In this document: piece by piece, positions 55,460-59,810 of the stretch
How the letters are laid out: each line of letters opens with the position of its first letter
Numbering within the stretch: position 1 is the first letter of the stretch
IMG/VR virus record: IMGVR_UViG_3300032312_001422
Location: 96,001-160,000 of that record
Strand: one strand, 5' to 3'
From: a virus
Lineage: Duplodnaviria; Caudoviricetes
Length of the DNA: 64,000 nt
The notes under the pieces: generated by a model
Told to the model about the DNA's origin: nothing
The model's input: only the letters and a program-made list of their open reading frames with translations
Database searches by the model: none
Program-made: the position numbers and the translations under genes

Positions 55460-56302
55460 ATGTCCAAAAATAAAGATAAAAACAAAGATAAAAATAAAAA
55501 TAAAGATCTACTATTTGATGCAATCAAAGCTACACAATACGTAAATGAAGCACCGTATCATCCCGGATACGAAGATGCTGTAATGCACATGAGCGATAAA
55601 GGTTACGAAGAAGGCAAGTATCTAGCCGATGCTATCCGATTTAATATGAAGCGTGATAAAAAACGTTTCTGGGCTGGTGACAACATCAGTGAATACTTGC
55701 ATGAAGGTGATAAAGAACGACTAATCGATGAAGCTACAGAAGCTTTTGAACGAGTGTTAGATACCTTGCTGATTGATCGTGAGAATGATCCTAACTCAAA
55801 AGGTACAGCACGTCGTTTGGCCAAGATGTATTTTAACGAAATTATGGAGGGCAGATATGCTCCAGCGCCAGATGCAACAGCTTTTCCAAATGATTCAGCG
55901 GATAGATACGAAGGTATGCTTGTGGTTCGTAGCGAACTGCGTTCTATGTGCAGTCACCATCATCAGCCTGTGTCTGGTGTTGCTTACATCGGAATCATTG
56001 CCGCAAATAAACTTATTGGCTTGTCTAAATATACTAGGATCGCTCAGTGGTGTGCTCGTCGTGGCACACTTCAAGAAGAACTATGTAACGACATCGCAAG
56101 AGAAATAATGCGGGCCACTGAATCAGAAAACGTGGGTGTGTATATCCAAGCGGTACACGGGTGCTGTGAGAATCGTGGCATTATGGCACACTCTAGTCTA
56201 ACGCAGACTACTGTGTTGCGTGGTAGTTTTCAAACAGACCCAGGAACCAAAAAAGAGTTCATGGACAATATTAAACTACAACAGGACTTTGCTCCTCGTT
56301 AA
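55460..56302 (+). CDS. folE: GTP cyclohydrolase I (type IA)
   Basis: SMCSHHHQP, GLSKYTRI, RRGTLQEEL, HGCCENRG; N-terminal KNKD low-complexity repeat. Confidence 0.95.
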   Translation: MSKNKDKNKDKNKNKDLLFDAIKATQYVNEAPYHPGYEDAVMHMSDKGYEEGKYLADAIRFNMKRDKKRFWAGDNISEYLHEGDKERLIDEATEAFERVLDTLLIDRENDPNSKGTARRLAKMYFNEIMEGRYAPAPDATAFPNDSADRYEGMLVVRSELRSMCSHHHQPVSGVAYIGIIAANKLIGLSKYTRIAQWCARRGTLQEELCNDIAREIMRATESENVGVYIQAVHGCCENRGIMAHSSLTQTTVLRGSFQTDPGTKKEFMDNIKLQQDFAPR

Positions 56303-56316
56303 GGAACATAACTACA

Positions 56317-56979
56317 ATGTTAGAAACCATATGTGAAGTATTAGAAGATGCGTACAAACGCAATTGGATTACCAGCCGTGATGGCAATGTGAGTATTCGT
56401 CATCACGACCGCGATCATTTCTACATCACTCCTAGTGGTGTGCGTAAACAGACACTACAACCTGATCAGTTTAAGAAAATTATAATTAAACCTCCAATGA
56501 CTTGGAACGAACCAGGCACAGGTTTATTAGCAGAACGTTGGGGGTGGAAAGAAGACACCTACACCGATATTAGTTCTAAACTACGACCCAGTGGAGAGAT
56601 TCCTTTGCATTTTGGTCTACAGAAACAGATGGGACAACACTTGGGAGAAGTCCGAGTAGTGGTACATGTGCATCCTACCTACTGCATTGCGGCCATGCAT
56701 GCCGGCATTGATTTGAGTACTGTGAGTGCGGCATTTCCAGAACTCAATCGATATACTCGGGTAGCACCCAATGTACCGGATGTTCCGCCAATCAGTCAAG
56801 AGCTTGCAGATAAATGTTTTGAAAAGCTAGGCCTAGATGATCAAGGTAACATTGCCTATGACATTGTGGGCATCAAAGGGCATGGAGTAGTTGCTATTGA
56901 TACAAGTCCGTGGCGTGCCTATGAGCACATAGAGCGATTAGAACACATTTGCAAGATTGTATTGGCCTCTAAAACATGA
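56317..56979 (+). CDS. Class II aldolase/adducin family metalloenzyme
   Basis: SRDGNVS, ITPSG, PSGE...H, VVHVHPTY, KGHGVV. Confidence 0.88.
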   Translation: MLETICEVLEDAYKRNWITSRDGNVSIRHHDRDHFYITPSGVRKQTLQPDQFKKIIIKPPMTWNEPGTGLLAERWGWKEDTYTDISSKLRPSGEIPLHFGLQKQMGQHLGEVRVVVHVHPTYCIAAMHAGIDLSTVSAAFPELNRYTRVAPNVPDVPPISQELADKCFEKLGLDDQGNIAYDIVGIKGHGVVAIDTSPWRAYEHIERLEHICKIVLASKT

Positions 56980-57305
56980 TACCTAAAAGTTGGCGCATAG
57001 GATTTTTTAACTGGCTTGGTGCAGGCAAAATAACATTAACAGTAGATAAACCACAGGAATACTCAATGGGAAATACATACACAATAGGCGGTGGTGGAGC
57101 AGGGTTGGGCGGCCTTCAGCTTAATCCATCAACTCCACAAAGTAGTCAAACAATGACTGTCAAGATTACTCCAGCCAACGGTGGCACTATTGTTCAAATG
57201 CTAACTAGCGAATATAGCAACGGAGAGTTATATATTATTCCAGACGGAATAGACTTTGATAGGGAACTAGGTAAAATTATCACTATGAGCAAATTAAAAT
57301 CATGA
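56976..57305 (+). CDS. Hypothetical protein
   Basis: ATGA-coupled ORF. Confidence 0.55.
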   Translation: MIPKSWRIGFFNWLGAGKITLTVDKPQEYSMGNTYTIGGGGAGLGGLQLNPSTPQSSQTMTVKITPANGGTIVQMLTSEYSNGELYIIPDGIDFDRELGKIITMSKLKS

Positions 57306-57529
57306 TTACACAAAGCCTACAGGCTGTTATAACAGAAGTATCCGACCTATGGTCTTGGATGATTGGCATTGTTGCTGGTTGGGGTCTAACATTTACTCTT
57401 GTGGTCGCTGTACTGATATATGCACACATCAGAATTTCTAGATTGCAACGTAAGGTAACACAGCTTGAAAATCGTCATGTAACAGATGAGCGGGACCTTA
57501 GCTTACGTATAAGGAAGTTTGAAAAATGA
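57302..57529 (+). CDS. Small membrane protein
   Basis: One TM helix followed by a coiled coil. Confidence 0.6.
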   Translation: MITQSLQAVITEVSDLWSWMIGIVAGWGLTFTLVVAVLIYAHIRISRLQRKVTQLENRHVTDERDLSLRIRKFEK

Positions 57530-57615
57530 AATTAGGTGAACTAATCTCTATGGTTATTTTTGGAATTATCTTGGTTGCATTTATTTTTTATCAATATGGA
57601 CATCATGTAAAATGA
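57526..57615 (+). CDS. 29-aa single-TM protein, not in ORF track
   Basis: MKLGELISMVIFGIILVAFIFYQYGHHVK; ATGA overlaps with both neighbours. Confidence 0.55.
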   Translation: MKLGELISMVIFGIILVAFIFYQYGHHVK

Positions 57616-58166
57616 GTAAAGTATATTACAAAGAATCAACAATTCGATCTTGGGTACACGATATTATCCGTGCTGTGAACGCAGATAATTGGCGCCCCGA
57701 TTATATTGTAGGTCTAACTCGCGGTGGACTAGTTCCTGCTGTGATGCTGAGTCATTACTTGGATGTACCAATGCATGCTCTTAAAGTAAGCCTACGTGAC
57801 GGCGATCATGGACCAGAAAGCAATGCATGGATGGCCGAAGATGCATTCGGTTGGATTGAAGGCGGGTATCGAGGGTTGGGTGGTGACGGTGCGTTTGATT
57901 TTACTATGCATGCTAAAAACATTCTTATAGTAGATGATATCAATGATACCGGCGCTACACTAAACTGGATTCGCAAAGATTGGCAAAGCAGTTGCTTACC
58001 CGATAACTCACGTTGGGAAAATGTATTTGGTAATAACGTTCGCTTTGCTGTATTAATCAATAACGAAGCCAGCGAGTTCACGGACGTGGACTATGTGGGC
58101 ATGTCAATAAACAAACTGGAAGAACCCATCTGGTGTGTTTTTCCTTGGGAAGAATGGTGGAGATAA
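57612..58166 (+). CDS. Type I phosphoribosyltransferase (xanthine-guanine PRTase-like)
   Basis: IVGLTRGGLVPAVMLSHYL; PRPP loop ILIVDDINDTGATL; VFPWE. Confidence 0.88.
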   Translation: MSKVYYKESTIRSWVHDIIRAVNADNWRPDYIVGLTRGGLVPAVMLSHYLDVPMHALKVSLRDGDHGPESNAWMAEDAFGWIEGGYRGLGGDGAFDFTMHAKNILIVDDINDTGATLNWIRKDWQSSCLPDNSRWENVFGNNVRFAVLINNEASEFTDVDYVGMSINKLEEPIWCVFPWEEWWR

Positions 58167-58185
58167 ATAGTTATATCCCCAAAAC

Positions 58186-58249
58186 AGCGGTCTTGGCGTC
58201 ATTCCCGCTTGATAAATTCTGCCGCCTATGCTATAATTAACATAGGAGA
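58186..58249 (+). promoter_or_regulatory. Candidate preQ1-I-like pseudoknot riboswitch with SD-sequestering hairpin upstream of queD
   Basis: AGCGG/CCGCT stem, loop UC...C, pseudoknot UGGCG/UGCCG, then CCTATG/CATAGG hairpin over AGGAG. Confidence 0.5.
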
Positions 58250-58254
58250 AATCA

Positions 58255-58704
58255 ATGGCAAAGTATTACTCAACAAAACATTACGGACACAACATTGGAT
58301 TGAGTGCTGTATTTAGACAGCCCAATGCCGATCATAGTCACTGTCACTTGCTACATGGCTACAGTCTAGCGTTTACATTCACATTTGGTTGTGATCAGCT
58401 AGACAACAAAAACTGGGCAGTGGACTTTGGCAGTCTCAAAGAACTAAAAGCCTGGCTAGAAGATCACTTTGATCACAAATTGGCTCTGGATCAACAAGAT
58501 CCGCACTTGTCCAAGTTCGAAGAATTACAAGCATTGGATCTGGTAGAGATCAGAATATTTGATGGTGTGGGTGCAGAGAAGTTTGCCGAGCATGCTTTCA
58601 ATTTTGCCGATCGATTGATTAGAGAAAAGACCGATGGTCGTTGCTATTGTGTCAGAGCAGAATGTGCCGAACACGGAGCCAATAGTGCAATCTACGAAGG
58701 TTAA
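58255..58704 (+). CDS. queD: 6-carboxy-5,6,7,8-tetrahydropterin synthase
   Basis: HCHLLHGYS, VDFGSLKELK..L...FDH, AEKFAE, AEHGANSAIY. Confidence 0.88.
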   Translation: MAKYYSTKHYGHNIGLSAVFRQPNADHSHCHLLHGYSLAFTFTFGCDQLDNKNWAVDFGSLKELKAWLEDHFDHKLALDQQDPHLSKFEELQALDLVEIRIFDGVGAEKFAEHAFNFADRLIREKTDGRCYCVRAECAEHGANSAIYEG

Positions 58705-58960
58705 CGAAATCTTGGACATATTGCAAGAGGAGTGCGGTGAAGTTATTGTTGCTATCAGCAAAATTCGCCGTTTTGGTATTGACAATACGTACAAGGATGG
58801 TGGTACCCAGCGTGAACACCTGGTACAAGAACTAGGCGATGTTACATTGCTAGTAGAATTACTCAAGGCACACAATATTTTTACAGAAGCAGAATTACAT
58901 GAAGCACAAGTGAGAAAAAGTCAAAAATTAACACAATGGTCGAAAATATATGAAGATTAA
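58685..58960 (+). CDS. MazG-like all-alpha NTP pyrophosphohydrolase
   Basis: LQEECGEV...QELGDV; GTG start at 58685 with GGAG 6 nt upstream. Confidence 0.72.
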   Translation: MQSTKVNEILDILQEECGEVIVAISKIRRFGIDNTYKDGGTQREHLVQELGDVTLLVELLKAHNIFTEAELHEAQVRKSQKLTQWSKIYED

Positions 58961-59810
58961 AGTCAGTGAAATATTTTATAGTTTACAAGGCGAAGGTCGC
59001 TTTGTTGGAGTACCCAGTGTATTCCTTAGAACCTATGGCTGTAACTTTACCTGTTCAGGTTTTGGATGCAAGCCTGGAGAAAAGTCAACAGGTGCCGATG
59101 AGGTTGCTAAAAAGGTTGAACTGTACAAGACATTTACGGACTTGCCCTTGGTAGAAACAGGATGCGACAGCTATGCGTCATGGCACCCTGCTTACAAGCA
59201 TCTAAGTCCAACACTGACCACAGAAGAACTTGTGGAAAAGATGTTGACCTTGACTCCCAACAACCAGTGGGCCCAGAACAATGGCAATGATGTACACTTG
59301 GTTATCACAGGCGGTGAACCTTTGCTAGGTTGGCAACGTGCCTATGCAGAACTGCTGAGTCATCCCAGAATGGCAGACTTAAAAAATATCACATTTGAAA
59401 CCAATGGCACACAAGAACTACACGAAGACTTTAGAGATTATTTGATCGATTGGGCCAGTGACAAAGCTGGTCGTGAAGTTACATTCAGTGTCAGTGCCAA
59501 ACTGAGTGCAAGCGGCGAGACTTGGGAAGATGCTATCAAACCCAAGATTGTCAATATCTATCAAACTTACGGACATACCTATCTTAAATTTGTGGTAGAA
59601 ACAGAAGACCATGTAACTGAAGCAGTCCGTGCTGTGGACGCCTTTAGACATGATGGCTTCAAAGGAGTTGTATACTTGATGCCACAGGGCGGTGTAGTTG
59701 ATCCATACGAATCAAATAAACTAAACATTGCCAACATCTGTTGCAAACTGGGATTCAACTATAGCCCACGCTTGCATGTGGATCTCTGGGGCAACGGCTG
59801 GGGCAAATAA
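58950..59810 (+). CDS. queE: 7-carboxy-7-deazaguanine synthase (radical SAM)
   Basis: EIFYSLQGEG..VG.PSVFLRTYGCNFTC...GCDS, VITGGEPLL, FETNGT, LKFVV, LMPQG, SPRLHVDLW. Confidence 0.9.
   Translation: MKIKVSEIFYSLQGEGRFVGVPSVFLRTYGCNFTCSGFGCKPGEKSTGADEVAKKVELYKTFTDLPLVETGCDSYASWHPAYKHLSPTLTTEELVEKMLTLTPNNQWAQNNGNDVHLVITGGEPLLGWQRAYAELLSHPRMADLKNITFETNGTQELHEDFRDYLIDWASDKAGREVTFSVSAKLSASGETWEDAIKPKIVNIYQTYGHTYLKFVVETEDHVTEAVRAVDAFRHDGFKGVVYLMPQGGVVDPYESNKLNIANICCKLGFNYSPRLHVDLWGNGWGK

Follow-up and report, generated by a model that had tools for sequence, protein, structure and literature searches.

A conserved pseudoknot in the leaders of phage queD-like genes, a putative riboswitch family resembling class I preQ1 riboswitches

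Does the short leader of a phage queD-like gene fold into a metabolite-sensing RNA, and in which direction would such an RNA act? The question is raised by a stretch of 64,000 nucleotides (nt) from a Caudoviricetes virus, a jumbo phage (positions 96,001 to 160,000 of IMG/VR record IMGVR_UViG_3300032312_001422), hereafter the window, in whose + strand numbering all coordinates are given. The gene, 58255–58704, encodes a QueD-like T-fold protein of 149 amino acids (aa). An earlier note on this DNA had proposed that its leader holds a pseudoknot similar to class I preQ1 (preQ1-I) riboswitches, followed by a hairpin over the Shine-Dalgarno (SD) sequence with a promoter in the hairpin loop, and that queD is repressed by feedback. 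The motifs that it named (ATAAATA/TAAATA, the arms of stem P1 and of the hairpin, AGGAG, the ATG at 58255 and TTGATA-N17-TATAAT) all lie where it placed them; its reading from TAAATA to P1 left out the 16 nt at 58170–58185. Taken alone, the leader is undecisive. Its fold z-score is −0.77, which is not better than that of shuffled sequences, and an Rfam search of the whole window at the gathering threshold finds no family, so that the pairings could be due to chance.

In the related loci the pairings are conserved by compensation. Searches of IMG/VR with the QueD protein matched over 590 loci, and the 80 best for each query were kept. An element of about 45 nt is present in nearly all leaders of the kept loci. 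Alignment A2 comprises 58 distinct copies of the element, and covariance model R1 was built with P1 as its only helix; alignment A3 comprises the 90 IMG/VR hits of R1, which are 81 distinct sequences. In A3, P1 (columns 3–7/29–33) and P2 (columns 16–22/47–53) are paired in 84% of the cells, compared with 41–57% in controls in which the 3′ partner was slid by one to three columns. The observed covariation score, 0.50, exceeds those of the slid controls (0.21 or less) and of all 500 shuffles. The full model, which includes the additional pairs P2b, has 86.8% of its cells paired (35–55% in slid controls) and a covariation score of 0.46 (at most 0.18 in the controls; reached by 0 of 500 shuffles), and 12 of its 14 pairs show changes on both sides.

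P1 joins AGCGG (58186–58190) to CCGCU (58205–58209), as the earlier note had drawn it; 92.6% of its cells are paired, and four of its five pairs change on both sides (GC/AU/CG, CG/AU/UA). The P1 loop is 14 nt long in the window, and CCGCT is followed by a 10-nt stretch that contains adenines and by TGCCGCC. P2 pairs part of this loop with the 3′ tail. Its 5′ strand (58195–58201) consists of GGCG (P2a, 58195–58198), U58199 and CA (P2b, 58200–58201), and its 3′ strand (58220–58226) of UG (P2b), C58222 and CGCC (P2a, 58223–58226). The pairing GGCG/CGCC, which had been mentioned as an alternative only, is thus the conserved P2a, while the pairing first preferred, UGGCG/UGCCG (58194–58198/58220–58224), is formed in 68.5% of the cells and has two inner pairs without compensatory change. 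The four core pairs of P2 (columns 19–22/47–50) show three to six pair types each. An invariant U/C mismatch (U58199/C58222, columns 23/46) splits P2b from the rest of P2; beyond it, C58200–G58221 (columns 24/45) is C-G in 81 of 81 sequences, and A58201–U58220 (columns 25/44) is A-U in 70 and G-C in 11 with no exception. RNAalifold, run on one short sub-branch, recovered P2 and suggested the P2b pairs, which direct counting confirmed. G-U pairs are frequent in P2, which indicates that the constraint acts on the RNA of the + strand.

The single-stranded segments are L1, UCUU (58191–58194), L2, UUC (58202–58204), and L3, UGAUAAAUUC (58210–58219). Twelve positions, most of them unpaired and located in these three segments, are invariant in 81 of 81 sequences: G58190–C58205, C58192 and U58193 (columns 9 and 10), U58199, C58200, C58204 (column 28), A58216, U58218, C58219, G58221 and C58222. 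C58204 is unpaired and adjoins the 3′ strand of P1 on its 5′ side. Leaders that score low with R1 obey the same model, with P1 as AGUAG/CUACU (L149) or AGUCG/CGACU (L106) and P2 as AGCG/CGCU (L142) or AUGC/GCAU (L144). The P2 variants GACUU/AAGUC (L173) and GGCUU/AAGUC, from marine and freshwater contigs binned into metagenome-assembled genomes (MAGs), fit as well, and so does GGUGU/ACACU with UCG/CCGC (L177). The covariation in P1 and P2 to which the earlier note had looked as evidence was therefore found, in 81 distinct sequences. On this comparative evidence the element is an H-type pseudoknot of about 41 nt (58186–58226) with covariation-supported P1 and P2, and we consider it nearly certain that a conserved cis-regulatory pseudoknot is real.

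As regards the ribosome-binding site (RBS), nested minimum free energy (MFE) folds were computed for 88 distinct leaders, 83 of which were usable for counting the pairing of the AUG and the SD. One fold recurs: P1 is accompanied by a long-range helix in which the 3′ strand of P2, extended by a few bases downstream, pairs with the start-codon region. At least two bases of the AUG are paired in 76 of the 83 leaders, and in 70 the AUG or the SD is paired with a 15-nt stretch around the P2 3′ strand; as background, among the 322 called open reading frames (ORFs) of the genome, the AUG is paired at all in 55% and with a distant upstream partner in 30%. This anti-start helix was tested with both arms anchored without using the complementarity of the flanks. 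Pairing at positions −5 to −1 is above all shuffles (0 of 2000 reach it), and the helix covaries: three pair types occur at AUG−1, and at AUG+5 a G-C pair (25 sequences) alternates with C-G (11 sequences), tracking a second codon GCN or GGN. Matched duplexes have −8.3 kcal/mol and mismatched ones −6.7 kcal/mol, a modest gap because the coding arm is conserved. RNAalifold, run on the short sub-branch, did not recover this helix of variable spacing. In one sub-branch the 5′ strand of P2, AUGGC, repeats the start region letter for letter, which lets the strand GUCAU pair with either.

In the sub-branch of the window the lock over the RBS has two parts. UGCCG (58220–58224) pairs with UGGCA (58256–58260) in the nested MFE fold, involving the AUGGCA start region of queD, and this helix is also present in the RNAalifold consensus of 23 sequences of the sub-branch. 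The second part is a hairpin, CCUAUG (58225–58230) with CAUAGG (58241–58246), which buries AGG, the first three bases of the SD AGGAG (58244–58248). All seven bases of the P2 3′ strand (58220–58226) thus also belong to the 5′ sides of these two anti-RBS helices, and because these bases are shared, P2 and the RBS lock are mutually exclusive. It follows that stabilisation of the pseudoknot should free the RBS. This is an ON geometry, opposite to the feedback repression that had been proposed, and if the element is a riboswitch we expect with fair confidence, from the pairings, that it acts in the ON direction. Transcription attenuation was considered and rejected, as no intrinsic terminator follows the hairpin.

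A scan of the 288,815-bp record with R1 returns one copy, with 56.7 bits and an E value of about 1e-18; the next match has 11 bits. In every related locus with an R1 match the element lies directly 5′ of queD. The kept QueD loci have 82–97% protein identity and are on contigs of up to 356 kb, and the neighbours of queD vary by sub-branch, among them UvdE, superoxide dismutase, a 2OG-Fe(II) oxygenase, a cytidylyltransferase, a phosphomannomutase, an epimerase and a DAHP/KDO8P-synthase-like protein. As these neighbours differ greatly, the element travels with queD itself. Five loci with unrelated neighbours (L005, L022, L023, L038 and L056) have QueD proteins that are 82–97% identical, from which queD and its leader seem to move as a cassette. 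One relative (L045:2744–3447) keeps the full leader and the start AUGGCAAA, and about 60 extra in-frame residues follow the first QueD codons, giving a QueD of 208 aa compared with 149 aa.

The element is known so far only from phage-like contigs. A DNA search of INPHARED with 57600–59000 gave no match among cultured phages, and R1 found no copy in Sinorhizobium phage Phosso or Synechococcus phage BUCT-ZZ01, cultured phages that are nearest by their QueD or DNA polymerase. The DNA polymerase of the genome is closest to those of the T4-related jumbo phages Phosso and Atu_ph07. Three element-bearing contigs of 17–32 kb (L173, L174 and L177) were binned into MAGs with the labels Rickettsiales (marine) and Crocinitomicaceae, which probably reflects mis-binning of phage contigs, or possibly points to hosts. 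A search of the available literature found no published description of this motif. On balance we regard it as a cis-regulatory RNA family that is so far undescribed and occurs in front of queD in uncultivated T4-related phages.

By analogy with known riboswitches, we favour on balance the reading that the element is a metabolite-binding riboswitch of a new class whose design is akin to that of preQ1-I. The best of the other accounts, and in our judgment a rather doubtful one, is that of a structured leader that needs no small molecule, with RBS release set by a bound phage or host protein, by co-transcriptional folding or by temperature. The covariation and the competing helices are silent on the effector, the conserved loop bases could equally be protein contacts, and the neighbours of queD vary so widely that no single metabolic logic is evident. 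Against it, the element is small and compact, and its unpaired invariant bases, among them the C on the 5′ side of the P1 3′ strand, gather around the helix junction; its strict one-to-one linkage with one enzyme gene across differing phages is the usual signature of a riboswitch aptamer; and no conserved gene for a partner protein travels with it.

The gene cluster of queD, at 55460–59810, encodes FolE (55460–56302), a class II aldolase-like protein, a purine phosphoribosyltransferase (PRTase)-like protein (57612–58166), QueD, a MazG-like protein and QueE (58950–59810). The queD product matches Pfam PTPS with 51.8 bits, and its relatives are annotated as QueD-like. No member of the QueC or TGT/DpdA families was found in the 288.8-kb record, which is estimated to be 80% complete; for QueC this agrees with the earlier note. 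In the synthesis of tubercidin, TubE joins 7-carboxy-7-deazaguanine (CDG) to phosphoribosyl pyrophosphate, and the set of GTP cyclohydrolase I, 6-carboxytetrahydropterin (CPH4) synthase, CDG synthase and PRTase found here matches the first steps of that pathway (PMC6112128). This suggests that the cluster makes 7-deazapurine nucleotides and does not serve base exchange in DNA. From the tubercidin-like gene set, the candidate effectors would be CDG, a 7-deazaguanine downstream of it, or a pterin upstream of QueD, all of which would present a guanine-like face to a cytosine. In the cultured phage BUCT-ZZ01 the genes for QueE, XGPRT, a hypothetical protein, QueD and FolE form one block. Around queD itself, the MazG-like ORF (58634–58960 if its first ATG is taken as the start) shares 71 nt with the 3′ end of queD, in a different frame, and its true start may lie further downstream; QueE, starting at 58950, overlaps the MazG-like ORF by 11 nt. 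With these overlaps the three genes look translationally coupled.

How far the likeness to preQ1-I goes can be judged base by base. Class I preQ1 riboswitches are H-type pseudoknots with a conserved G-C floor pair, an A-rich L3 and a strict C on the 5′ side of the P1 3′ strand, preceded by U in type I or by A in types II and III; an L1 uridine and the last adenine of L3 read the edge of the ligand, the translational members have SD bases within P2, and all known preQ1 classes are OFF switches from bacteria (PMC11625349). The queD element is likewise a small H-type pseudoknot in the leader of a deazaguanine-pathway gene, with a P2 formed by the hairpin loop and the 3′ tail and a P1 of 4–5 bp that has a conserved closing G-C pair (G58190–C58205 in the window, 81 of 81 sequences). 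Its invariant unpaired C58204, preceded mostly by U or A and also by C, occupies the position of the specificity cytosine of preQ1-I (PMC11625349), and its L3 contains adenines and could lie in the minor groove of P1. It differs in several parts. L1 has at least 4 nt and begins with A (46 sequences), U (24) or C (11) followed by an invariant CU; L3 has 10 nt (6 in one sub-branch) and ends with an invariant UC instead of A; P2 has 6–9 bp and the invariant U/C mismatch. The SD lies outside P2, generally 20–35 nt further downstream; the 3′ strand of P2 ends 17 nt before the SD in the window and 20–40 nt before the AUG in the relatives, and it competes with the anti-RBS helix, and the predicted logic is ON.

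An Rfam search of 58050–58400 at E ≤ 10 returned nothing relevant, the weak minus-strand matches to PsrR1 and NmsRb being noise, and Rfam 15 had no family match in 19 diverse relatives at E ≤ 10. The preQ1-II and preQ1-III models (RF01054 and RF02680) are thereby without a match at E ≤ 10, both around the element and in the 19 relatives. The preQ1-I model (RF00522), to which the earlier note had pointed as a check, has no match at the element at E ≤ 10 in its own genome. On five related records it gave one partial match, of 10.4 bits compared with a gathering cut-off of 39 bits, in which model positions 6–34 align with the P1–L3 part of one relative. As the Rfam model fails, this partial alignment excepted, the element is not filed as a member of preQ1-I. 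As to the likeness to preQ1-I, the general layout, the closing G-C pair, the invariant C and the A-containing L3 are supported; a match to the Rfam family, a conserved L1 uridine and L3 adenine, and an SD within P2 are not.

That the element is nevertheless a divergent true class I preQ1 riboswitch, with preQ1 or preQ0 as its ligand and feedback repression of queD, appears improbable to us. The pseudoknot with its invariant floor pair and C, the A-containing L3, the context of a deazaguanine-synthesis gene and the weak RF00522 alignment would be expected of such a riboswitch; the failure of RF00522 on the element and on four of the five relatives, the absence of any Rfam 15 match in the 19 loci, the variable first base of L1, the UC end of L3, the long mismatched P2 that excludes the SD and a platform geometry that favours ON would not. 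From sequence comparison, the element looks like a new preQ1-I-like family that is absent from Rfam. It resembles preQ1-I in architecture and, by analogy, probably also in the kind of ligand, and given this class I-like layout a flat, guanine-faced ligand read by C58204 would be the most likely effector.

The leader also contains promoter-like sequences, which bear on the question of which transcripts would carry the element. A scan for sigma-70-type sites finds TTGATA-N17-TATAAT at 58209–58237, with 11 of 12 matches and an upstream TG (58229–58230). Its −35-like hexamer (58209–58214) overlaps L3 and its −10 box (58232–58237) lies in the loop of the anti-SD hairpin. The arrangement noted earlier, a hairpin over the SD with a promoter in its loop, is conserved in the sub-branch of the window: in 24 of 24 members a −10 box is present in the loop (exactly TATAAT in 18, with a one-base change in 6) and is preceded by TGC, and a −35 hexamer with 4–5 of 6 matches lies within L3, at a spacing of 17 nt in 22 members and of 18 nt in two. 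The other sub-branches are built differently. There, 41 of 62 leaders have a match of 11–12 of 12 to TTGACA-N16–18-TATAAT that ends 5–20 nt before P1, which would place the element at the very 5′ end of the mRNA; such a promoter upstream of P1 was found in 1 of 24 sequences of the window sub-branch. All members of that sub-branch also have a three-codon frame, ATG-CTA-TAA, in the hairpin (58228–58236), which overlaps the −10 box, has no SD and is probably incidental.

In the whole genome, 33 sites match TTGACA-N16–18-TATAAT in at least 11 of 12 positions, compared with 11–18 in shuffles, and 30 of them are on the + strand, the main coding strand. These sites, which are probably early promoters for the host RNA polymerase, usually end 6–32 nt upstream of an ATG, and the queD site, with 17 nt between its −10 box and the ATG, is typical in this respect. 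A second motif, ATAAATA (58163–58169), includes the TAA stop codon of the upstream PRTase-like ORF and is separated from P1 by the 16-nt spacer at 58170–58185. It matches the core of T4-type late promoters (PMC9004378). Of the 71 occurrences of ATAAATA in the genome, 38 lie in the 80 nt upstream of genes, a 12-fold enrichment, and mostly 17–26 nt before the ATG; among upstream hexamers, TAAGGA and TAAATA rank highest in enrichment. TAAATA is found 3–16 nt 5′ of P1 in 12 of the 24 sub-branch leaders, and TAAGTA in five more; a promoter function of the motif is a prediction from this pattern. It is plausible, judging from these sites, that two kinds of transcripts exist, as the earlier note had suggested: short sigma-70 transcripts starting at about 58244, without the anti-RBS arms, and long ones that carry the switch. 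The overlap of a strong sigma-70-like promoter with L3, the P2 3′ strand and the hairpin in the window sub-branch could also mean that the conservation acts on the DNA, as a queD promoter or operator with incidental RNA pairings, but this is very improbable, as the covariation contradicts it, with compensatory changes and G-U pairs that are strand-specific and also occur within the sub-branch, and the other sub-branches keep the element with an upstream promoter and without the downstream −10 box.

We return to the metabolite-binding riboswitch. In the mechanism that we propose, the P2 3′ strand would pair with the RBS as long as the pseudoknot is not formed, and the RBS of queD would be locked. 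A 7-deazaguanine or pterin intermediate of the FolE-QueD-QueE route would bind at the P1/P2 junction and stabilise the pseudoknot, the P2 3′ bases would be withdrawn from the RBS, and translation of queD would be turned on. In the window sub-branch, a sigma-70-type promoter within the locked region would produce short transcripts from about 58244 that escape this control, and the switch would govern the longer transcripts, which would arise by read-through or start at the ATAAATA motif. The complete scheme, in which a phage riboswitch class senses a compound of the FolE-QueD-QueE route (CDG, 7-deazaguanine, preQ0, CPH4 or dihydroneopterin), turns on queD translation and, in the window sub-branch, acts on late or read-through transcripts only, owing to an early promoter inside the locked RBS, is offered tentatively.

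Several observations weigh against parts of this scheme. We infer ligand binding from architecture and gene context, and the bases with which class I reads preQ1, the L1 uridine and the last L3 adenine, are not conserved in the element. An ON switch on a biosynthetic gene would be unusual if the ligand were the end product. By profile scores the gene is only QueD-like, the TIGR03367 QueD model giving 36.5 bits, which is below its cut-off, and a minority of related queD genes do not have the element. The anti-SD stem is nearly invariant in 23 sequences, with a change from C-G to U-G at its base as the only one, and so has no compensatory support. In some sub-branches P2 shares only two bases with the anti-start helix, and there the two helices may stack coaxially, with an OFF outcome.

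Parts of the proposed mechanism have counterparts in known systems. The RBS of the T4 genes e (lysozyme), soc and I-TevI is sequestered by a hairpin on long transcripts, and transcripts from an internal promoter lack the 5′ arm of the hairpin and can be translated. The combination of an RBS hairpin and an internal promoter is the same here, and it is conserved in 24 of 24 members of the sub-branch. It differs from T4 in that the internal promoter is of the sigma-70 type (early) and the upstream motif of the late type, which is the reverse of T4, and in that the long transcript carries an aptamer-like pseudoknot able to release the RBS. The adenine riboswitch of Vibrio vulnificus add is a translational ON switch: in the free state a strand of the aptamer pairs with the SD or AUG region, and the bound ligand keeps that strand in the aptamer and frees the RBS. 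The logic of RBS release is that predicted for the queD element, whereas the add aptamer is a three-way junction that binds another class of ligand in a bacterial setting. In phage T4, the mRNA of gene 32 also has an H-type pseudoknot at its 5′ end, in the leader, where it acts in translational control. That pseudoknot is a nucleation site for the protein in autogenous control, with no alternative pairing of the RBS, and is unrelated in sequence and in the conservation of its loops.

Riboswitches have rarely been reported in phages (PMC9004378). If our reading is true, the queD element would be a new variant of aptamer fold that accompanies queD in hundreds of uncultivated aquatic phages, and its specificity, for 7-deazapurine or pterin metabolites, could be a new one. 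With about 45 nt, it is small enough for straightforward binding assays, reporters and crystallography, and its natural variants form a ready-made series of compensatory mutants. The phage of the window would then be the first that gates its DNA- or nucleotide-modification pathway through a metabolite-sensing RNA.

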